NCBI GenBank assembly: GCA_011390065.1
Contig: JAABTD010000005.1
Span: 339 to 64,338, forward strand
Source: Desulfobacteraceae bacterium
GTDB taxonomy: Bacteria > Desulfobacterota > Desulfobacteria > Desulfobacterales > JAABSP01
DNA length: 64,000 bases
Direction of reading: 5' to 3'
Position numbers and translations under genes: made by a program. This document shows, piece after piece, positions 1 through 45,016 of this stretch. How positions within the stretch are numbered: the stretch's first letter is position 1; each line of letters begins with the position of its first letter. The notes under the pieces were generated by a model. The model was not told the origin of the DNA and searched no databases. It saw only the letters and a list, made by a program, of their open reading frames with translations.

Positions 1-796
1 CAACGCCTACCACGCCATGCGGGCATCCGGCGGCGCCCTTTCCGTGTCCATGGACGACGTGGATCTGACGGAGGAGCGGCGATTCCTTGCCGCGACCCTC
101 CGACCCGGCCGCTATGTGCGGATCAAGATCGCCGACACCGGCGCCGGCATTTCCCGGGAGATCAGGGAACGCATTTTCGAACCCTATTTCACCACCAAAA
201 AAATGGGCGAAGGCTCAGGGCTGGGCTTGTCCGTCAGCCTGGGCATCGTGGAAAACCATGGCGGCGCCATCGATGTGGAAAGCGCGCCCGGCAGAGGGAC
301 CGTCTTCACGGTGTTTCTGCCGCTGATTGAACCGGCCCCCCTGCCGCAAAAGAAAGCGCCGCGGCAACCACCCAGGGGCGGCGGGGAGCGGATTCTGCTG
401 GTAGACGACGATCCGTTCTTACTCGACGCCATCTGCAAACACCTCGCAACCTTCGGGTACAGGGTCCAGCCGCACCACAGCAGCGTTGAGGCCCTGGCCG
501 CCTTGCAGAGGAATGCGTCCGCGTTCGATCTTCTCATCACCGACCAGACCATGCCGGACATCACCGGGGTCCAGCTGGTCGGAAAAGTCCGGCGCCTGCG
601 GCCCGATCTACCGGTCCTCCTGTGCACCGGCTACAGCGACACGGTGACGGAAGAAAACGCGGCCCGGTTCGGCATCTCCAAATTCCTCAAAAAGCCCGTC
701 AGCGGGGAGATCCTCGCCTTCGCCGTCCACCACGCATTAAACCCGGTCGACGACCGCAACATTCAGGACGATGGCCCCACCCGCCGTCTCATGTAA
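1..796 (+). CDS. hybrid sensor histidine kinase, C-terminal part (HATPase_c + receiver); 5' end lies outside the window
   Basis: Frame is open from the window edge (..NAYHAM.., N-box like). ATP-lid motifs DTGAGI and GEGSGLGLS. Then a receiver domain: ILLVDDD ... [14 protein letters not shown] ... KKP. Confidence 0.85.
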
Positions 797-1176
797 TCGT
801 CGATGGCCGAGTGCAAGGTCGAAGCCGCCAGCGATGCGCAATGCCGGTGGTCTTTCGGAAGGTCGCCGATGGCGCTGCAAATGGCGTCCGCGTCGATATC
901 CAGGATCGCTTCCGGCGATTTGCCCTTTGCCAGATCCGTCGCCGCGAGAACGCAATTGACGCTGTAGATGCACCCGTCCGTCCAGTGGGACGTTTCGGTC
1001 ACCGCATCCTTTTCAAAGAGAAGACGGATCTCCATGGTGTCGCCGCAGGCGCCGGTGATGCGGGCTTCGGCGTCCGGCGCATCCAGGCGGGGATTGAGCC
1101 ACCAGTAAACGGCGAACCAAATCCCGACCACCGACGTCAGGATGGCCGTTCCGGCCAGCAGCGTTCCGACCGTCAT
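763..1176 (-). CDS. membrane-anchored NifU/IscU-like Fe-S scaffold domain protein
   Basis: N-terminal hydrophobic helix [27 protein letters not shown]. IscU-type pattern GACGDTMEI ... DGCIYS ... [17 protein letters not shown] Shine-Dalgarno 8 nt upstream. Lies 26 nt downstream of rnfB. Confidence 0.7.
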
Positions 1177-1201: not shown

Positions 1202-2086
1202 TCAGAGGGCCAATGCCTCCCGCTCCGACATCTCCTCCTGGCTTTTCAGGAGCGGATGGCCCCCGAAAGGCTGAATCACATGGGCGGTGAAACAGGCCGC
1301 GACACAGGCCTCCCCGCAGGAAGGGCCGAAGGCGATGCACCGCTCGTGATCGATGCGAATGCGTTCGTCTTCGAGCAATACGGCCTCGGCGGGGCAGGCC
1401 CTGACGCAGGACATGCAGTGGAGGCATCCGGAAGAGCAGATTTCGTGGGTCTCTTTGGCGTCGGCCCGGCTGCTGCACCGGACCACGACCCGGGCGTTCC
1501 GGGGGACGAGACTGAACAGGTCTTTGGGGCAGGTCTCGACGCAGATGCCGCATCCCACGCAGAGATCGGCGTCCACGACCGGGAAATGGTGCACCATGGC
1601 GATGGCGTCGAAGGGGCAGGCGTGGGCGCACTCGCCGAACCCCACGCACCCGCACTGACAGTCCGTGGGGCCGGCAAAGGCGATGTTGGCGGCGGAGCAG
1701 TTGCCGTATCCGATGTAGTCGTATTTTTCATAGTCGGATCTCAGGCACCGGGCGCAATGCACCGCCGCCACGGCCCCTTCCGCCGACCCGACTTCCTTTC
1801 CGGTGATTCGGGCCACCGCCTCCGCCACCGGCGCCTTTCCCGGAAAACAGAGATCGGGCGGCACCTTCGGATTTTCGACCACGGCGGTCGCATAGGCTTC
1901 GCACCCGGCGAAGCCGCAGGCGCCTCACTGCCCGCCGGCCAGAACCTCCTGCACCGCCTCGATTCTGGGGTCGACTTCAACCGCGAAGCGATGCGCCGCC
2001 AATCCCAGGCCGATGCCGAAAAACACGCCGATGCAGCCCAATACGGTCAATCCGCCCAGGGCGAGTTTGATATACACGGGGTCCAT
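1202..2086 (-). CDS. rnfB: Rnf complex subunit B (ferredoxin-type) with an in-frame TGA at codon 54, putative selenocysteine
   Basis: ATG at 2086 follows GAGAGGTGAGAG and opens a TM helix (MDPVYIKLALGGLTVLGCIGVFFGIGLGLAA). Then ..EVLAGGQ-TGA-GACGFAGCEAYA..DLCFPG, matching the RnfB/RsxB N-terminal cluster motif QCGxCGxxGC. Downstream are 4Fe-4S motifs CVGCGICVETCP and CLHCMSCVRACP. The ORF track only calls 1202..1882. Confidence 0.75.
1895..1915 (-). promoter_or_regulatory. putative bacterial SECIS-like hairpin downstream of the rnfB TGA
   Basis: Minus strand reads GGCTTCGC-CGGGT-GCGAAGCC: a perfect 8-bp stem and a 5-nt loop containing GU. It starts 9 nt after the UGA at 1927-1925. Confidence 0.5.
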
Positions 2087-2109
2087 CTCTCACCTCTCGT
2101 TGTTAAACG

Positions 2110-3108
2110 CTAATAAATCGTCATGCCGGAAAACCCCATAAAGGCAAGGGCGAACAGCCCGGCCACCACAAAGGCGATGGGCAGTCCCCTGAAGGATTCG
2201 GGGATGTCGGCGAACTCGATGCGCTCGCGCACCGACGACATCAGGAACAGGGCGATGAGAAACCCGAGTCCCGCGCCCGCGGCCAGCATGAGGCTTTCCA
2301 GCAGGGTGTATTCGTTGTCCGCCAGCATCAGGGGAACGGCGATGACAATGCAGTTGGCGATGACCAGCACCAGATAGACGCCGAAGGCCTTGAACAAAGC
2401 CGGGTTCACTTTTCTCAGGATCGTGTCGACCCCCTGGACGGTCAAAGAGACCAGACCGATGAAGACGACGATCTGCAAATAATCCAGCCGGAAGGGCTTC
2501 AGGACGAACTGATGGAGAAACCACGACATCATGGACGCGGCAATGATGACGATGGTGAAGGTGACGCCCATGCCGACGGCGGTCGATTTTTTCCGGGACG
2601 TGCCGAAAAACACGCACAGCCCCAGGTACTTGGAAAACACGAAATTCTGGATGATCATGGCCCCGATCAGGATGGAAAACAGGTGGCCCACGTAGAGCTT
2701 TTTGACCGTCAGGTGGGCGGTCCCCTGGGAGACGCCGCCGGAGCGGATCTCTTCCAGCACCACCTTGTGAGGGATGTCGCGGGAGATGGGTTCCGACGTC
2801 CGGAGGGTCAAAACCCGCCCGTCGGGGCCGAGTTCCACGCGATCGATCTGCGCCGGGATGTCCGGGTCCGGTTTCTCGTACACGGAAAAATGATCCCTGT
2901 TTTCAGCCCATGCCGGGTCGACGGGGCCGGCGAAGGTGATCACGATCTCGCGACTGTCCCTGAACTCGGCCTTTTGCACGAACCGATGGTCGGCGCCGCA
3001 GCCGCAAAGCAGCAGCAGGCACAGGAGTAAAAGGGCGATCCGCGGTTGCCGCGGATGCCGGGTCGCCGGCGCCGGGCGGTCCGTTCGATGCGACAATGGG
3101 GGCGTCAT
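2110..3108 (-). CDS. rnfA: Rnf complex subunit A with a ~139-aa N-terminal lipoprotein-like/Ig-like extension
   Basis: C-terminal ~190 aa is canonical RnfA/NqrE (LFSILIGAMIIQNFVFSKYLGLCVFFG ... ANCIVIAVPL ...). The ATG at 3108 overlaps the rnfE stop (ATGA). An internal GTG at 2691 is an alternative start. Confidence 0.85.
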   Translation of the reverse strand: MTPPLSHRTDRPAPATRHPRQPRIALLLLCLLLLCGCGADHRFVQKAEFRDSREIVITFAGPVDPAWAENRDHFSVYEKPDPDIPAQIDRVELGPDGRVLTLRTSEPISRDIPHKVVLEEIRSGGVSQGTAHLTVKKLYVGHLFSILIGAMIIQNFVFSKYLGLCVFFGTSRKKSTAVGMGVTFTIVIIAASMMSWFLHQFVLKPFRLDYLQIVVFIGLVSLTVQGVDTILRKVNPALFKAFGVYLVLVIANCIVIAVPLMLADNEYTLLESLMLAAGAGLGFLIALFLMSSVRERIEFADIPESFRGLPIAFVVAGLFALAFMGFSGMTIY

Positions 3109-3734
3109 ATGGCCTTTCTCTCCTTTCTGCCGCGGTTGTAAAGGGTCTCCACATAATTGAAGATGGCCATCATGAACCCGATCATGAAAAATCCGGCGGC
3201 GGGCAGCACGAAAAAGAGCATCGGACGGAACCCGAGGATGTCATACCCCAGCAGCGCGCCCATTCCCAGGATCTCCCGAATGGCGCCCAACACCACCATG
3301 CCGAACATGAACCCGAACCCCATGCCCATCCCGTCCCAGAAGGAGGGAACCAGGTCGTTCTTGCAGGCGAACACCTCCAGGCGCATGGTGATGATGGCGA
3401 ACGCCACGATAAGCCGCACGAAGATCCCCATGGCCTCATAGGCCGCCGGCACGTAGGCCGCCAGCACGAGATCGATCACCGTGACCCAGGTGGCGATGGT
3501 CAGGGTGTAGGTCGGGATCCGGATGCGGGGATGGATGTGGTGTTTGATCAGGGAAATGGTGCAGCTGGAAAACACCTGGACGAAGAGCACCGCGACGCCC
3601 AGCAGGATGCCGTTCATGACGGTGGTGCTGATCCCCACGGCCGGGCACATGCTCAGGGCCAGGCGAAAAATGGGGTTTTCGTTCAGAAGACCATTGACAA
3701 ACAGCTGCTTATTGGTTTTCGTCGTTGCCGGCAT
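3105..3734 (-). CDS. rnfE: Rnf complex subunit E
   Basis: NPIFRLALSMCPAVGIST ..., a six-TM RnfE/NqrD-like sequence in the expected operon position. Confidence 0.9.
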   Translation of the reverse strand: MPATTKTNKQLFVNGLLNENPIFRLALSMCPAVGISTTVMNGILLGVAVLFVQVFSSCTISLIKHHIHPRIRIPTYTLTIATWVTVIDLVLAAYVPAAYEAMGIFVRLIVAFAIITMRLEVFACKNDLVPSFWDGMGMGFGFMFGMVVLGAIREILGMGALLGYDILGFRPMLFFVLPAAGFFMIGFMMAIFNYVETLYNRGRKERKAI

Positions 3735-3759: not shown

Positions 3760-4665
3760 TTACATTGCCGCTGGTATATGGTTTTTCGAGATCACGCGAT
3801 CCAGGATCTTGATCCGATAGACGGATTTCTTGACCATGCGCTTCAGGCCGTCGGTCACGCACCGGCTGGAAATCGTGGCCCCGGCAATGGCGTGGATGTC
3901 TTCGTCCTGATAAGCTTTTCCGATCCTGACCAGGTCTTCCCGGGCCGCCGTTTTTTCCAGGAAATGCCGGTAGTCGTCGGGGAGCGGTTCCTTGATCACG
4001 TCCAGGTCCCGGAGTTGTTCAAGGGACTTGCCCTTGAACTGGTTTTTAAAATAGGGTTTTTCGATCTCGCCGCCCAGGCCCGGGTCTTCCTCATGGTCCA
4101 TGATCTCCAGCCCGAGGAGGTTGAAATCCGCGTCCAGCGCCGCCATGACATGAATGAAGGTCTTAAAGCCGGAAAACTCGCCCGGAAGCAAATACGCGAT
4201 CCGTTCGCCGTTCGCCGCCGCGATGATCATCGTGTCCGCGTATCTGGCCTGTTGGCCGGGACCCAGCGCCGCTGTGACCGCCGCGTCCCGGTCCGGCTTT
4301 TCCATGGCCGTTTCGGGGGACAGGCCGAGCCGGCGCCGATCGATCAGGTTGCCTTCCAGGTCGAGGACCCACATCTCATAGACGACGCCGGCCTCCTGTT
4401 CCACCGGCGCCAGGTACCCCAGGTCGGTCCGATCGTTGTCCTGGATGATGTATCGGTAAATTGAATGCAGCGACAGGTTTTCGGCGGCCCGGTCCGATCG
4501 GCCGGGAAGTTCCGGTGCGATCAGTTCGAACATGGTTTCTTGCCGGTTTTGCTGCTGGTTCCGCTTTTTGGCTTCCGCCGTGACCATAAAAACCCCGCCC
4601 ATCACACTGCCGGCGACCAGACACGAAATGGTCAGGGCCATGGCGATCTTGACAATCTCTTTCAT
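3760..4665 (-). CDS. rnfG: Rnf complex subunit G (FMN-binding), longer than typical
   Basis: Start MKEIVKIAMALTISCLVAG (TM helix); its ATG overlaps the rnfD stop (ATGA). FMN attachment motif IAGATISS near the C-terminus. Only the 3' 906 nt of track ORF 3760..5604 is used. Confidence 0.85.
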   Translation of the reverse strand: MKEIVKIAMALTISCLVAGSVMGGVFMVTAEAKKRNQQQNRQETMFELIAPELPGRSDRAAENLSLHSIYRYIIQDNDRTDLGYLAPVEQEAGVVYEMWVLDLEGNLIDRRRLGLSPETAMEKPDRDAAVTAALGPGQQARYADTMIIAAANGERIAYLLPGEFSGFKTFIHVMAALDADFNLLGLEIMDHEEDPGLGGEIEKPYFKNQFKGKSLEQLRDLDVIKEPLPDDYRHFLEKTAAREDLVRIGKAYQDEDIHAIAGATISSRCVTDGLKRMVKKSVYRIKILDRVISKNHIPAAM

Positions 4666-5672
4666 ACCGTCGCGCCTTCGGAAAAGCGCCTGGGCCTCAA
4701 TCGCTGGTCCAGGGCCGGGGTTAATGCATTCATGAGCAGGATGGCGTAACAGATCCCTTCGGGGTATCCCCCTTTCATGCGGATCAGGACCGTCAATGCG
4801 CCGATCCCCGCGCCGAAAATGAGTTTGCCGGTCTTCTGGGTCGGCGAAGTGACATAATCCGTGGCCATGAAAAAAGCGCCGAGCATCACGCCGCCGGAAA
4901 GCACCGCCACGAGGGGGTTTCCCGTAAACAGGGCGTCTCCCCCGAAAATCCAGGTCAGCCCGCCGACGGACAGGATGAGGGATGCGGGGATGTGCCAGGT
5001 GATATACCGTTTCCAGATCAGAAACATCCCGCCCAGGAGCAATAGCAGGCCCGAGGTTTCCCCGATGCACCCGGGGCGCAGTCCGATAAAAAAATCCCTG
5101 TAAACGGTCGACATGGCCCCGAATCGTTCCGTGAACGCCGCCATGCCGTAATGTTTCAGAACATACAGGGGGGTGGCCCCGGACACGGCATCCACGCCGC
5201 CGCCCATGTACTTGAACACCGAGAGGTCCCGGATGGGTTCCAGCCAGGCCGTGGTCATGGCCACCGGATAGGTGGCCACCAGAAACGCCCGGCCGATCAG
5301 CGCGGGGTTGAAAATGTTGAAGCCCAGCCCGCCCATGAGCACCTTGGAGACAAAAATGGCCATGAACGCGGCGGGGATGGGCATCCAGACAGGCGCTCCC
5401 GGGGGAATCACATAGGCCAGGAGCAGGCCCGTGATCACCGCGCTGCCGTCTTTCACCGTCACGGGCCGCTTCAGGGCCTTTTCGGACAGGGCTTCCGCCG
5501 CGACGCAACCGCCCACGCTCACCAGGGTGATGTACAGGACCTGGAACCCGAAGACAAAGACCGACAAGACCAGGGGCGGCAACAGGCACGCCACGACCGT
5601 CCACATGATTTTTTCAACGGTAACGTCCTGCTTGACGTGCGGCGACACCGATACGTACAGATCTGTTGTCAT
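4662..5672 (-). CDS. rnfD: Rnf complex subunit D
   Basis: Start MTTDLYVSVSPHV lies 1 nt after the rnfC stop. Polytopic membrane protein with the SGATPL flavin-attachment motif. Confidence 0.9.
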   Translation of the reverse strand: MTTDLYVSVSPHVKQDVTVEKIMWTVVACLLPPLVLSVFVFGFQVLYITLVSVGGCVAAEALSEKALKRPVTVKDGSAVITGLLLAYVIPPGAPVWMPIPAAFMAIFVSKVLMGGLGFNIFNPALIGRAFLVATYPVAMTTAWLEPIRDLSVFKYMGGGVDAVSGATPLYVLKHYGMAAFTERFGAMSTVYRDFFIGLRPGCIGETSGLLLLLGGMFLIWKRYITWHIPASLILSVGGLTWIFGGDALFTGNPLVAVLSGGVMLGAFFMATDYVTSPTQKTGKLIFGAGIGALTVLIRMKGGYPEGICYAILLMNALTPALDQRLRPRRFSEGATV

Positions 5673-5673
5673 G

Positions 5674-7125
5674 TTAAACCGCCCCGATCCGTTCTTCCCG
5701 CTCTCTTTTTTTCCGCGCCTCGCCGATCTTGATCCGGGCCAGCCGGATAAACTGCACCAGGGGCCGTTTCGACGGACAGACATACGCGCAGCTCCCGCAC
5801 TCGAAGCAGTCCTCCATCACGCCGAATTGCCCGGTCTCCGCCCCCCGCCCCGCTTCGACCCAGATGCCGATATTGTTCGGTTCAAGCCCCATGGGACAGG
5901 CGTCCAGACAAAATCCGCACCGGATGCAGGGGCCGTAATCCTGCGTATCGATCTCGTCCTTTGTGAGAAACAGCGCCCCCGAGGTGGTTTTGGTGACGGG
6001 AATGTTCAATGTGGAAACGGCGAATCCCATCATGGGCCCGCCCATCACCACCTTGGCCAGATCAGGGGTCGTTCCGCCCAGGTGGGAGACGATGTCGGAG
6101 AGGTGCGTCCCGATGGGGACCCGCAGATTGGCCGGCCGGGCGATCCCCTTGCCGGAGACGGTGACGACCCGCTCGTAAAAGGGCTTTCCCAGCGCCACGG
6201 CGTCGTAAACGGTTTTCGCGGTATAGACGTTCTGGACGATGATGCCGATGGACGAGGATCGCCGGCCCGAGGGCCGCACCCGGCCCGTGACGCTCTGCAT
6301 GATCTGATCCGCCGCCCCCTGGGGGTATTTGACGTCGAGGGGGCGGACGCGGATCCTGAATCCGTTCCCGGCGTCCCCCTGATCGATGACTTCCCGCAAC
6401 CGCTCGATGGCGTCGGGCTTGTTGTTTTCGATGCCGATGGCGCAATCGGAAATCCCCAGAATCGTCAAAAGGATCTTCGCCCCTTCGACGACCTCCCGGG
6501 CGTGTTCCACCATGATCCGGTGATCGCAGGTGAGATAGGGTTCGCACTCCGCGCCGTTTAAAATCAGGGTGTCCAGCGCGACATCCGGCTTGACCGCCAG
6601 TTTGATGTCCGACGGAAATCCGGCGCCCCCCAGGCCCACGACGCCGGCGTTCCGGATGCTGTTGAGCAGCCCCTGCCGGGAAAATCCGCGCCAGTCGGTC
6701 GGTTCATACGATCGAGGGCGCCCTTCCGGATCTCCGGAAATAACGATGGCCGGGGCTTTCCCCATCATGGGGTGGCGCACATCCGCCACGCCGTCCACCG
6801 CCCCGCTGAGGCTTGCATGAAGATTGGCCCCGACCTTGTCTCCCACGGTTCCGATCAAGTCCCCCGTCCGGACCCGGTCCTTTCGCTCCACCAGGATCTG
6901 ATAAATGCGGCCCGGGTGACGGTGGTACAACAAATTCCGGGGCGGAGGGGCGTCTTGCCGTTTTTCCACGGCCACCTCGCACGGCGTTCCCACATGCTGC
7001 TTTAAAAACAACGAGACCCGGGGCGGCGGCGGCATGGATTCGATGGGAAGGCCGGCGGTGACCGCCTTCATTTCCGGCGGGTGGACGCCGCCTTTGGGAA
7101 ACGTCGGCATAGGTTTCGGCGACAT
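5674..7125 (-). CDS. rnfC: Rnf complex subunit C (NADH/FMN-binding, 2x[4Fe-4S])
   Basis: GLGGAGFPS, LILNGAECEPYLTCD, CIRCGFCLDACP and CFECGSCAYVCP. Confidence 0.9.
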   Translation of the reverse strand: MSPKPMPTFPKGGVHPPEMKAVTAGLPIESMPPPPRVSLFLKQHVGTPCEVAVEKRQDAPPPRNLLYHRHPGRIYQILVERKDRVRTGDLIGTVGDKVGANLHASLSGAVDGVADVRHPMMGKAPAIVISGDPEGRPRSYEPTDWRGFSRQGLLNSIRNAGVVGLGGAGFPSDIKLAVKPDVALDTLILNGAECEPYLTCDHRIMVEHAREVVEGAKILLTILGISDCAIGIENNKPDAIERLREVIDQGDAGNGFRIRVRPLDVKYPQGAADQIMQSVTGRVRPSGRRSSSIGIIVQNVYTAKTVYDAVALGKPFYERVVTVSGKGIARPANLRVPIGTHLSDIVSHLGGTTPDLAKVVMGGPMMGFAVSTLNIPVTKTTSGALFLTKDEIDTQDYGPCIRCGFCLDACPMGLEPNNIGIWVEAGRGAETGQFGVMEDCFECGSCAYVCPSKRPLVQFIRLARIKIGEARKKREREERIGAV

Positions 7126-7140: not shown

Positions 7141-7653
7141 CTATTTCCTGGGATTCCGTTTCAGCAGTTTGAACGCGTAGTCTTCCCGCGATTGATGCGA
7201 CAACCGGGTCGGTTCCCCGAATTGGAGGGCGTTGGTGGGACAGGCTGCGACGCAGGCCGGTTCCTCGCCTTCCTCGATTCGGTCCATGCACATGTCGCAC
7301 TTCATGGCCTTGCCCGCATCGGGGTCCCACTGGGGAATGTGCCATGGACAGGCCAGAATGCAGGCTTTGCACCCCACGCACAAGTCCCTTATGATGTAGA
7401 CCAGGCCGTTTTCATCGCTTTTGCGGATGGCGTCCACCGGGCAGGCGTTCATGCACCATGCGTCTTCGCAATGAAAGCAGGGAACGAAAAGGGAGGACAT
7501 CGCGGGGCTGCCGTTGATCATTCCAGGTCCCATGACCACAATTTTTCCCAATGTCGCGCCGGCCGGAACGTGGTTCTTCGCTTTGCAGGCGACTTCGCAT
7601 GAATGGCAGGCGACGCATTTGGTCGGGTCCGTATAAATGAGATAATCTCCCAT
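7141..7653 (-). CDS. 4Fe-4S ferredoxin-type electron-transfer subunit (DmsB/HybA-like) of the molybdopterin oxidoreductase
   Basis: Cys clusters CVACHSCEVAC, CFHCEDAWCMNACP, CVGCKACILACP and CDMC..ACVAACP. Lies 17 nt downstream of the catalytic subunit and 15 nt upstream of rnfC. Confidence 0.85.
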   Translation of the reverse strand: MGDYLIYTDPTKCVACHSCEVACKAKNHVPAGATLGKIVVMGPGMINGSPAMSSLFVPCFHCEDAWCMNACPVDAIRKSDENGLVYIIRDLCVGCKACILACPWHIPQWDPDAGKAMKCDMCMDRIEEGEEPACVAACPTNALQFGEPTRLSHQSREDYAFKLLKRNPRK

Positions 7654-7670
7654 TCTCTAATCCTCCACAA

Positions 7671-9755
7671 TCAAAGTTTTGACACGCTTACGAGCGTGTG
7701 ATCGAGGGCCGGGCTCCCCCCGACATTGTCCATGATCGCCTCCTGAACCTCGGCATCGGCCATGCCCCGTCCGCAACTCCGCCGCGACTCGGGTTCCCGA
7801 TGGCCGAACCCGTGGAGCATGAACACCGCTTCCGGATGGATCATGTCCGTCACAAAGGCCCGGATGCGCCCTTCGCCCGCCGACGACGACACGGCCACCG
7901 TTTCCCCGTCGTTGACGCCCAGGGCCGCCGCCCGTTTGGCATTGATCCAGAGCCGGTTTTCCGGAACCAGTTCGTTCAGGTAGGGGTTGTTCTGGGTCAT
8001 GACGTTGGTGTGGGCGATGCACCGGCCCACCATGAGCCGGAACCGGTCGTCGGAGACCTCCAGGGGCTCGTAAGGCGGGAACGAAGGGAACCCGTTGTCC
8101 TCCAGCAGGCTGGACGTGAATTCGATTTTGCCCGACGGCGTTTTGAATTTGATGCCGTCGTTCCGGTCCCACCGGATCGGTTTGTCGCTGAGCGATACGA
8201 ATCCCTTTTCCTCGAACGCCTCGATGCCGATGCCCATGTCGGCCAACTGGTATTGCCAGATGTCCTCGATGGTCTCATAGGGAAAGTATTCGCCCACGCC
8301 CAGCCGCTCCGCCAGTTGCTTCAAAATCCACCACATCGGCTGGGTGTCGTACCGGGGTTTGATGCAGGCGATGCGCCGGTTCACGGCGGGTTTCAGGCCG
8401 GCGCCCATCTGCAAGGGGTCCGAGCGCTCCAGGAAAAGGGACTCCGGCAGAATCACGTCCGCCAGGGAGGTGGTTCCCCCGAAATTGATGTCGCAGGACA
8501 CGATCAGGTCGAGTTTTTGCAGGGCCTTGAGACTCTGCTGATAATCGAAATTGGAATACAGTGGATCGAACCGGAACGCGAAAAGGACTTTGATCGGATA
8601 CGGGTCTTCGTTCAACACCGCACTGGGGAACATGGCCCCCACGCCGTGGGCCGCATCCGCGATGGGGAATTTGTCCTGGCCGCACCCATCGAATCGGCGG
8701 GCATCCTCCATGGGCGGGAATTCCTGGTCGGAAAATTTCCGGATCCCGGCGTCCAGCCCCGCGTCTTTGGGCCCTTTTTTGATGACGATGCCGCCCGGCG
8801 ACTCGATGCTCCCCATGAGCGCGTTGAGCATCATGATGGAGCGCCGGAAATAGATTTCCGTGGGGTGGTGCGACCCCCGGTAGCCGTAGTGAAAGACCAC
8901 GGCCGGTTTCGCCCGGCTGGCTTCTTTGGCGAGCCGGATGATTTCCCCGGCCGGGATCCCGGTTTCCACCTCGGCCCATTCCGGCGTATAGGTGTCGACG
9001 AACGCGCTGAGCCGGTGGAGACCTTCCACCCAGCGATCCACATATTGGACATCGTAGAGGTGCTGTTTAATGATGACGTGCATCAGCGCGTAATTCAACG
9101 CAAGGTCCGTCCCGGGCCGGATCATCATGTAATTGTGGGCTTTCGCCGCCGTGATGCTGACCCGGGGATCGATATAGGTCAGTTTGGTCCCTTTGCCCAT
9201 GGCGTCCAGGAGCGCGTTCATGGCTTTGACTTCGACGCTTTCGAAAACATTCCGGCCATAGAGGATCACTTGTCGGGCATTGGACCAGTCCGCGGTGATC
9301 TGCCCGTCGGTGTAGCCGATCAGGGACCGGCAGGCCGTGTTGATGGACCCCTTGCAGATGGTGTCGTGGGAAAAATAGTTGGGGGAGCCGATGGCCTTGA
9401 GAAAGGTTTTGGAAAGGTCGGTCACCAGGTTTACCCGCTCGCAGTAGACCGCGCTTTTGGCGCCGTATTGCGCAAAAATTTCCTTGCACCGGTCGGCGGT
9501 GTAATCAAGGGCCTCGTTCCAACCGACCTTTTTCCATTGCCCGGACCCCCGGGGGCCGGTTCGGATCATGGGCGCCTGCACCCGCTGCGGGTCGTCGAGC
9601 CATCCCACCGCGGCCGCGCCCTTGGGGCAGACGCCTTTCATGGCCGGGACATGGGGATTTCCTTCGATGCTGACGATTTTATCATCTTCCACCACCACTG
9701 CGATGGGGCATCGCACCGAACACATGAAACACAACGTGTATATCTTTTTCTTCAT
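7671..9755 (-). CDS. molybdopterin (bis-MGD) oxidoreductase catalytic subunit, cytoplasmic, substrate unknown
   Basis: N-terminal CFMCSVRC (CxxCxxxC) ... GVCPKG Fe-S motif. Size and overall pattern fit the DMSO-reductase family. No twin-arginine leader. Start chosen at the second ATG (9755), which has a GGGAGAG Shine-Dalgarno; an alternative ATG is at 9797. Confidence 0.85.
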   Translation of the reverse strand: MKKKIYTLCFMCSVRCPIAVVVEDDKIVSIEGNPHVPAMKGVCPKGAAAVGWLDDPQRVQAPMIRTGPRGSGQWKKVGWNEALDYTADRCKEIFAQYGAKSAVYCERVNLVTDLSKTFLKAIGSPNYFSHDTICKGSINTACRSLIGYTDGQITADWSNARQVILYGRNVFESVEVKAMNALLDAMGKGTKLTYIDPRVSITAAKAHNYMMIRPGTDLALNYALMHVIIKQHLYDVQYVDRWVEGLHRLSAFVDTYTPEWAEVETGIPAGEIIRLAKEASRAKPAVVFHYGYRGSHHPTEIYFRRSIMMLNALMGSIESPGGIVIKKGPKDAGLDAGIRKFSDQEFPPMEDARRFDGCGQDKFPIADAAHGVGAMFPSAVLNEDPYPIKVLFAFRFDPLYSNFDYQQSLKALQKLDLIVSCDINFGGTTSLADVILPESLFLERSDPLQMGAGLKPAVNRRIACIKPRYDTQPMWWILKQLAERLGVGEYFPYETIEDIWQYQLADMGIGIEAFEEKGFVSLSDKPIRWDRNDGIKFKTPSGKIEFTSSLLEDNGFPSFPPYEPLEVSDDRFRLMVGRCIAHTNVMTQNNPYLNELVPENRLWINAKRAAALGVNDGETVAVSSSAGEGRIRAFVTDMIHPEAVFMLHGFGHREPESRRSCGRGMADAEVQEAIMDNVGGSPALDHTLVSVSKL

Positions 9756-9832
9756 AAAGGCTCTCCCTACCCCGTCATGGTATGAAATCTTTTTCATTTT
9801 AAATTCTGGGGTTCAACCCCTTTTAGTGAGAG

Positions 9833-44095: not shown

Positions 44096-45016
44096 TTACT
44101 CGGGCCCGGTATCCAGCCGGGGGCTCCTGTCCACCATCTCCCGCAATTCCTGCCAGTCGAAATGGAGATAGCGGCGGGTGGTGTTAAGATTTTCATGCCC
44201 CAATAAATACTGGATAATAATCAGGTTTTCACCTGCGCTCGCTTTGAGGCTCGCACCGGAATGACGCAACAGGTGGGGGCCTCGCTTGCGTTTGAAGATG
44301 CCGGCTCTTTTTAATGCGTCACTGACGATGTTATGGACCTGTTGCGGGGTGAGCGGTTTTCCGTGGCTCGACAGGAACACCCACGGAGACTCCTTTCCCT
44401 TGAACCGCGATCGGGTTCCATACCAATTTTGAAATTTTTCAACGATATGCTCGTTCAGCGGCAACTTGCTCAATTTATCCCGTTTTCTCGACACCCAGAT
44501 CTCCCGCGCGTCCAACCGCACATCTTTTATTTTCAAGTTGACGACCTCCGACACCCGAAGGCAAAGATCTGAAAACAAGGTCAATAAAAGAATGTTCCGA
44601 TGCGTCATCTTGTTCGGTCGTTTATTGTGCTGAAATGCAAAAAGGCGTTCGAGTTCAGAGAGGGTCAGATAATCGGTGTTGGGCTGATAAATTTTTGGCT
44701 TATCGATGGTTTCCGCGATATTTTCCGAAATCAGGGATTCATCGACCAGATAATCCATAAAGCTGATCAAAATATAGATCACGGTCAATTTGGTCGATCG
44801 AAGGACATCCTGGGTCTGAAGATACGCGATAACCGTTTTGCGGGTCAGATCTTCCGGGAAAACAATATCGTGCGCCTTACAGTATTCGGCGAACTTGACC
44901 AGGGCATATCTACGCTTGCTGGTCGTTGCCTTGCTGAAGACGCCGGTGGCTTCTTTAAAAGACACATAATCGTCTACGGCTTGCTTGATGGAAATATTGT
45001 CCATGGATTCGTTCAT
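44096..45016 (-). CDS. tyrosine site-specific recombinase (phage-integrase/Xer family) in a low-GC islet
   Basis: LRVSEV.. (Arg I), HLLRHSGAS (H-x-x-R) and LGHENLNTTRRYLH (catalytic Tyr). By-eye GC is about 45%, against about 60% in the flanks. Confidence 0.85.
   Translation of the reverse strand: MNESMDNISIKQAVDDYVSFKEATGVFSKATTSKRRYALVKFAEYCKAHDIVFPEDLTRKTVIAYLQTQDVLRSTKLTVIYILISFMDYLVDESLISENIAETIDKPKIYQPNTDYLTLSELERLFAFQHNKRPNKMTHRNILLLTLFSDLCLRVSEVVNLKIKDVRLDAREIWVSRKRDKLSKLPLNEHIVEKFQNWYGTRSRFKGKESPWVFLSSHGKPLTPQQVHNIVSDALKRAGIFKRKRGPHLLRHSGASLKASAGENLIIIQYLLGHENLNTTRRYLHFDWQELREMVDRSPRLDTGPE

Follow-up and report, generated by a model that had tools for sequence, protein, structure and literature searches.

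In many sulfate reducers and syntrophs, ferredoxin is coupled to NAD+ mainly at the Rnf complex. Here we describe the gene for its subunit RnfB in a 64,000-nucleotide stretch of DNA from a Desulfobacteraceae bacterium (NCBI GenBank assembly GCA_011390065.1, contig JAABTD010000005.1, positions 339 to 64,338 of the forward strand), hereafter the window, whose first letter is position 1. In this gene, the last of an rnfCDGEAB operon, an in-frame UGA occupies the place of a conserved cysteine, and it is very likely that the codon is read as selenocysteine (Sec) and that rnfB is a selenoprotein gene, as judged from sequence comparison.

RnfB is composed of a transmembrane helix, a small mobile FdI domain and a polyferredoxin domain, with residues 1-29 working as the membrane anchor (Vitt et al. 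2022, PMC9588780). The FdI motif CxxCx(n)Cx17C carries the [4Fe-4S] cluster RnfB-1, a mobile shuttle cluster, and it has been proposed that FdI swings between cluster RnfB-2 and a metal centre held by RnfA/RnfE (PMC9588780). A 2025 review of RNF and NQR (PMC12174285) agrees on this architecture, and its text contains no occurrence of 'selen'. The described proteins from C. tetanomorphum (7ZC6), A. woodii (9ERI) and A. vinelandii (8AHX) are of the Cys type. They have the transmembrane helix, the FdI motif and the C-terminal polyferredoxin domain in common with the window RnfB, and their partners RnfC, D, G, E and A are those of the window operon. However, their first FdI ligand is provided by a Cys codon, whereas in the window it comes from UGA.

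The replacement of a metal-binding Cys by Sec is found in other low-potential anaerobic electron-transfer proteins, such as FdhA, the [NiFeSe] hydrogenase FrhA/VhuA, FrhD/VhuD and HdrA. As for RnfB, the Sec and Cys forms of these proteins alternate between related genomes and are carried by the same Desulfobacterota lineages. The Sec of FdhA and of the hydrogenases sits at a catalytic site as a ligand to Mo/W or Ni, whereas that of RnfB would ligate a [4Fe-4S] cluster dedicated purely to electron transfer and free of any substrate chemistry. The Sec of HdrA is regarded as a cluster ligand. Within the Rnf context, an RnfC-like (PrdC-type) selenoprotein family (2016, PMC5029168) is also related to an Rnf subunit, but the subunit is a different one and the setting is that of proline reductase; the window rnfC is an uninterrupted open reading frame (ORF) of 483 amino acids.

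The closest precedent is a single table row in a 2026 review (PMC13188914), in which NF005503 with a UxxC motif and a single Sec is given as a predicted selenoprotein family, with WP_258165141.1 as the example sequence. Since NF005503 ('RnfABCDGE type electron transport complex subunit B') is the best-scoring model for the window RnfB and its U-G-A-C fits UxxC, the RnfB family is already catalogued as a predicted selenoprotein, the likeness being drawn from the two features compared, the model family and the motif U54-G-A-C57. Thus, the discovery implied by an earlier reading of the window from its letters alone (the sequence-only reading) had been anticipated. Nothing in the row ties the family to RnfB of an rnf operon, and the row is silent on a selenocysteine insertion sequence (SECIS), on distribution and on any connection with the FdI cluster. 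In a literature search no paper discussing Sec-RnfB was retrieved, and the row was the sole trace. The cited source for NF005503/UxxC is the 2008 Global Ocean Sampling study (GOS 2008, PMC2398784), whose text and part of its supplements have no entries for RnfB, PRK07118 or 'Fe-S cluster'; the same material includes the pfam02508 family, another Rnf-related Sec protein.

The rnfB frame and the replaced ligand

The features of the gene, all on the minus strand, are the following.

1202 to 2086, minus strand: recoded rnfB coding sequence with UGA as codon 54, from the single-frame translation and the NF005503 score (339.6 bits against a cut-off of 252)
2087 to 2098, minus strand: Shine-Dalgarno-like GAGAGGTGAGAG directly 5' of the ATG at 2086 (2086-2084), from sequence reading
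1994 to 2065, minus strand: N-terminal membrane-anchor helix of RnfB, about residues 8-31, LALGGLTVLGCIGVFFGIGLGLAA, from the translation and the alignment with the transmembrane helix of 7zc6_B and 9eri_B
1925 to 1927, minus strand: in-frame UGA, codon 54, predicted selenocysteine codon, from Sec/Cys pairing and the alignment with RnfB of the PDB
1847 to 1927, minus strand: FdI cluster-binding motif U54-x2-C57-x4-C62-x17-C80, from the PF04060 match and the motif description in PMC9588780
1895 to 1915, minus strand: SECIS-like hairpin with 5' arm GGCUUCGC (1915-1908), loop CGGGU (1907-1903) and 3' arm GCGAAGCC (1902-1895), from the centroid fold
1202 to 1882, minus strand: shortened rnfB ORF of the kind produced by gene callers, 226 amino acids from a GTG at 1882, from the ORF list and equivalent database entries

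Translated in a single frame, rnfB runs from the ATG at 2086 through the in-frame TGA at 1927-1925 to the stop at 1204-1202, for a total of 294 codons of which codon 54 is the sole internal TGA. The 53 codons ahead of it encode MDPVYIKLALGGLTVLGCIGVFFGIGLGLAAHRFAVEVDPRIEAVQEVLAGGQ, which includes a hydrophobic helix and ends with EVLAGGQ, and the frame then continues uninterrupted to the stop with GACGFAGCEAYA...DLCFPG, or in a longer reading GACGFAGCEAYATAVVENPKVPPDLCFPG... The start with its Shine-Dalgarno sequence, the helix, EVLAGGQ and the TGA in one frame had been proposed by the sequence-only reading and are confirmed to the base. In the mechanical ORF list, the gene is cut in two, namely an ORF of 53 amino acids (1925-2086) and the 226-amino-acid ORF from the GTG at 1882, which is without the membrane anchor and without the FdI ligands U54, C57 and C62, so that C80 alone is kept. 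TGA works as a normal stop in the window, where it ends about half of the long ORFs, and the genetic code can therefore be considered standard here.

The identity of the gene, also as previously proposed, is well established by profile searches. With the UGA read as Cys, the product scores 339.6 bits with NF005503 (cut-off 252), 88.6 with TIGR01944 (cut-off 68.7) and 32 with PF04060 (cut-off 23), the last match spanning residues 50-81. Against 7zc6_B the E-value is 5.7e-54, and both the N-terminal transmembrane helix and the four-ligand FdI motif that follows it are aligned with 7zc6_B, 9eri_B and 8ahx_B. In the column of codon 54, Cys is present in all full-length homologues and in these three PDB chains. 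The window motif reads U54-x2-C57-x4-C62-x17-C80, and therefore the UGA replaces the first ligand of the RnfB-1 cluster, in agreement with the position that the sequence-only reading had assigned to it.

UGA and Cys forms among relatives, and the downstream hairpin

At the protein level, the full-length homologues of about 290 amino acids retrieved by a protein search (47-74% identity) have Cys at the codon-54 column, and P0001-P0005 among them are 68-74% identical to the window RnfB over 100% of its length. The similarity to the Cys homologues is high also along the N-terminal 53 amino acids. About 19 further protein clusters (P0007, P0016, P0019 and others) are only 220-228 amino acids long, have as their start the Met or Val that comes first beyond the motif, and are without PF04060; they include the entry of Desulfonema magnum, named 'NADH dehydrogenase protein'. 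The expectation that standard gene callers would shorten the protein is thus borne out in public data.

At the DNA level, a comparison set was made of 80 species-level genomes, corresponding to the best 80 matching loci, to which D. magnum and the window gene were added to reach 82. Codon 54 is TGA in 22 of the 80 genomes, in D. magnum and in the window gene (24 in total) and TGC or TGT in the other 58, these being the exclusive alternatives to TGA. The search for Cys/Sec pairs at this column that had been suggested earlier is thus positive. The TGA genomes comprise metagenome-assembled genomes (MAGs) of Desulfobacteraceae and Desulfobacterales, one MAG of Desulfatiglandales, and Syntrophus buswellii DM-2 (L030), whose genome is complete. 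The D. magnum locus has the same layout as the window, with 53 codons, TGA and 241 codons, and GAGGAG at the place of the Shine-Dalgarno sequence. In a codon-wise profile from codon -30 to codon +40 around the UGA, amino acids are kept and third positions vary freely, and among the 80 loci there is no further in-frame TGA in rnfB. In a neighbour-joining tree, the UGA forms make up a broad grade in which Cys forms are nested (L001, L002, L004, L011/L012/L047 and L033), and a Desulfobulbales-type clade and all outgroups are Cys. As far as sequences can tell, the pattern corresponds to the usual picture of dynamic Sec/Cys exchange.

Downstream of the UGA, the 8-bp stem and CGGGU loop described by the sequence-only reading are present where they were claimed to be. 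The hairpin starts 9 nt after the UGA, its 5-nt loop begins 17 nt after it, and it represents the centroid structure of the local fold, with an energy of -13.0 to -14.4 kcal/mol. The model of the bacterial SECIS (bSECIS) in PMC13188914 calls for a loop of 3-9 nt, a stem of 4-16 bp, a G within the first two loop positions, a distance of 16-37 nt from the UGA to the loop and a minimum free energy of -7.5 kcal/mol or lower. The hairpin falls within all four constraints of the model, its G being at loop position 2. As a measure of the chance background, the generic model is passed at 7.2% of the 2006 TGA trinucleotides of the window, and a hairpin as stable as that of rnfB is present at only 0.85% of them. 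Stronger evidence against chance is given by the comparison of relatives, in which TGA recurs at this very codon.

The hairpin is found in 24/24 UGA forms, but its stem is mostly dictated by the peptide G-F-A-G-C-E-A, in that the Phe codon UUY is complementary to Glu GAR, Ala GC- to Cys -GY, and Gly GGN to Ala GCN. The real support for the hairpin is thus provided by a constraint on synonymous sites that is limited to the UGA forms, and not by the stem itself. In particular, the Gly codon at +4, whose third base pairs with a fixed G (G31) of the Ala/Gly codon at +10, is GGC in 24/24 UGA forms (entropy 0 bits) versus 24/57 Cys forms (Fisher 1.7e-7). When the Cys forms are matched for amino acids (same F and E residues), GGC is present in 6/12 (p = 5e-4 versus the UGA forms). 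Other Gly codons in the UGA-form alignment have entropies of 1.3-1.9 bits, and GGC accounts for 35% of the Gly codons elsewhere in these genes. Similarly, Glu at +9 is GAA in 23/24 UGA forms versus 25/51 Cys forms (p = 6e-5), on a GAA background of 53%, and Gly at +7, in the loop, is GGC in 0/24 UGA forms versus 25/58 Cys forms. The frozen wobble sites cannot be ascribed to shared ancestry, because four-fold sites are near saturation among the UGA forms, with a median pairwise identity of 0.35. These frequencies point to selection at the RNA level on the hairpin, acting only where the codon is UGA.

The nested Cys forms differ in this respect. L011, L012, L047 and L057 keep the full hairpin, which may represent a possible fossil SECIS, and L001, L002 and L033 have lost the GGC of Gly+4. 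Both outcomes would fit recent Sec-to-Cys conversions, and their coexistence suggests, at the level of sequence, several independent conversions of different ages.

A separate feature of the stem is that Pro (CCN) is present at +6 in seven UGA forms (L007, L008, L013, L014, L020, L038 and L075), in all of which (7/7) Cys+8 is UGU. With Pro+6 and UGU, the mismatch close to the stem tip is C·U in place of C·C, and among the Ala+6 forms of the 23-sequence set UGC prevails, 13 versus 3. The association may depend on shared ancestry or on a SelB-related preference.

Selenocysteine and the alternative readings of the UGA

Several observations weigh against the assignment of the codon to Sec. The 61-nt region folds no better than its shuffles (z = -0.53), a value that is not significant; the GC-rich background folds equally well. 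The perfect stem, which the sequence-only reading had taken as evidence for Sec, is by itself a weak argument, being mostly a by-product of the codons for G-F-A-G-C-E-A. The Cys forms L057, L011, L012 and L047 hold an equally good hairpin. In a covariation test on the 24 UGA forms, 85.9% of the cells are paired and there are zero double changes, a result equal to that of shuffles; no compensatory covariation is possible, since the codons leave almost no room for it, with codon structure fixing five of the eight pairs. Formal covariation was for this reason dropped as a test, and synonymous-site entropy was used in its place. Rfam gives no match over the whole window at gathering thresholds, and between 1800 and 2000, at E-values up to 10, its only match is a chance microRNA; this null is uninformative, as the scans gave no bacterial SECIS match. 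There is no selA, selB, selD or tRNA-Sec in the 64-kb window, as assessed by a tRNA scan and by Pfam searches that included 20 further ORFs, nor is there a tRNA of any kind in it. Finally, the solved structures show RnfB-1 only poorly, so that Cys ligation itself rests on the motif and on models (PMC9588780, PMC12174285).

Among the alternatives, the UGA might be a true stop, in which case the gene would be split into a 53-amino-acid membrane peptide and a separate soluble protein that starts at the GTG at 1882, without the anchor and most of the FdI motif. Such an arrangement agrees with the mechanical ORF calling and with public annotation, and would be the default outcome if the Sec machinery were absent. 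However, the 14 codons from the TGA to the GTG (GACGFAGCEAYATA), which hold two remaining cluster ligands, are conserved as amino acids with varying third positions in 24/24 UGA forms, and no start codon occurs after the TGA ahead of the conserved GxCGFAGCEAYA stretch. Moreover, the product would be left with one ligand out of four for the cluster feeding RnfA/E, and the pattern persists in 24 genomes whose synonymous sites are saturated, all of which makes a true stop very improbable. Read-through by means other than Sec, with a near-cognate Cys, Trp or Arg tRNA or some other suppression and the hairpin as a mere stimulator, can be considered improbable as well. The sequence data are silent on the inserted amino acid, and the window is devoid of sel genes, but the codon alternates with Cys codons only, which is the classic Sec/Cys signature, and the geometry and G-rich loop of the hairpin match the SelB-type bSECIS model. 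Suppression of low efficiency would also presumably be a poor route to a stoichiometric core respiratory subunit, and the clades concerned are known heavy users of Sec. Indeed, in Desulfococcus multivorans five selenoproteins accompany selA, selB and selD (PMC5109826), and for Syntrophus aciditrophicus the number of selenoproteins is 19 (PMC1794560).

A mistake in sequencing or assembly, or a pseudogene of recent origin, with TGC or TGT as the real codon, is hardly credible. TGA is one base away from either codon and the window is one read-out of its source genome, but the identical TGA is found in 23 other independent assemblies, including the complete isolate genome of S. buswellii and D. 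magnum, the gene has no frameshifts and no other stops, and the wobble positions of the hairpin co-vary with the UGA state. All in all, the three alternatives are unlikely because the codons between the two ORFs are conserved, the pairing is with Cys only and 24 assemblies agree.

With the UGA taken as a Sec codon, translation would begin at the ATG at 2086, and at the UGA the hairpin 1915-1895, with its loop NGGNU 17 nt downstream, would recruit SelB with Sec-tRNA(Sec). Sec would be inserted as residue 54 and translation would run on to the stop at 1204-1202. In the protein, Sec54, Cys57, Cys62 and Cys80 would then ligate the [4Fe-4S] cluster RnfB-1 of the small, flexibly tethered FdI domain, which would shuttle electrons, with the C-terminal polyferredoxin portion of RnfB at one end of its path and the Fe-S centre held within the membrane by RnfA/RnfE at the other. 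We infer the SelB-dependent insertion, the ligation of RnfB-1 by selenium, from homology with the Cys forms, and any effect that Sec may have on the redox potential or the robustness of the cluster.

Operon context and possible role of a selenium ligand in Rnf

In the rnfCDGEAB operon, the genes rnfC, D, G, E and A lie directly upstream of rnfB on the same strand.

2110 to 3108, minus strand: rnfA, TIGR01943 E = 3.1e-59, residues 143-329
3105 to 3734, minus strand: rnfE, NF009070 214 bits against a cut-off of 184
3760 to 4665, minus strand: rnfG, 301 amino acids, longer than the profile, TIGR01947 and NF041840 matches below cut-offs
4662 to 5783, minus strand: rnfD, TIGR01946 326 bits against a cut-off of 207, with the ATG near 5672 as the probable true start
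5674 to 7125, minus strand: rnfC, uninterrupted 483-amino-acid ORF, TIGR01945 467.7 bits against a cut-off of 246

Two of these subunits have a peculiar architecture. RnfA has a conserved N-terminal extension of about 135 amino acids ahead of its profile match, with a signal- or lipobox-like LLLCGC followed by a conserved 'HRFV.K..F.D' segment, and the ATG of rnfA overlaps the stop of rnfE. An extension of this type occurs in ORFs of 312-325 amino acids at most of the related Desulfobacterota loci, in Sec and Cys forms alike. As for RnfG, its 301 amino acids compare with 187-190 for the RnfG profiles, which match at residues ~144-279 only, and the N-terminal helix seems to be followed by a lengthy insertion or extension.

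Directly 3' of rnfB, a gene at 763-1176 (minus strand) encodes a protein of 137 amino acids in which an N-terminal transmembrane helix is combined with a scaffold domain of the NifU/IscU type (TIGR03419 E = 3e-15, below cut-off). More speculatively, this protein might work as a dedicated Fe-S maturation factor for Rnf. On the other side of the operon, immediately upstream of rnfC, the region 7141-9797 (minus strand) holds a PhsA-like molybdopterin oxidoreductase of 708 amino acids (NF012032 550 bits, below cut-off) and a DmsB-like four-cluster Fe-S subunit of 170 amino acids, neither of which has an in-frame TGA. A scan of the window for split ORFs joined by TGA leaves rnfB as the sole plausible selenoprotein candidate. 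At a distance from the operon, a tyrosine recombinase of the phage integrase family is encoded at 44096-45016 (minus strand; PF00589 E = 7e-33), flanked by housekeeping genes on one side and by a group of two-component and GGDEF signalling genes on the other, with no tRNA nearby.

The value of these data lies in the link to the structure of Rnf and in the comparative evidence; they do not define a new class, as the family was already catalogued, although thinly documented. The predicted Sec-RnfB is widespread in sulfate-reducing and syntrophic Desulfobacterota and absent from the text of the 2025 Rnf review, and public annotation routinely truncates it. The annotation is often wrong in the same way, with an orphan ORF of 53 amino acids and a product of ~226 amino acids named 'NADH dehydrogenase', 'hypothetical' or RnfB, and metabolic reconstructions built on such shortened calls may score Rnf as incomplete.

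As regards the biology of these organisms, it appears reasonably probable that, across a large set of Desulfobacterota lineages (Desulfobacterales, Syntrophales-like and Desulfatiglandales), selenium is a ligand of the gate-keeping RnfB-1 cluster of Rnf. In many sulfate reducers and syntrophs, this energy-conserving ferredoxin:NAD+ pump would then be selenium-dependent, and the selenolate would tune the potential or the stability of the one cluster obliged to move between the polyferredoxin arm and the RnfA/E centre in the membrane. If true, a Sec ligand on the mobile cluster, from which the membrane core is fed, would render Rnf dependent on selenium. Nature would thereby also offer a Se/S pair in which to study how the identity of a ligand relates to the potential of a low-potential [4Fe-4S] cluster, as Sec and Cys orthologues exist at ~70% identity, such as the window gene and L001 or L002.

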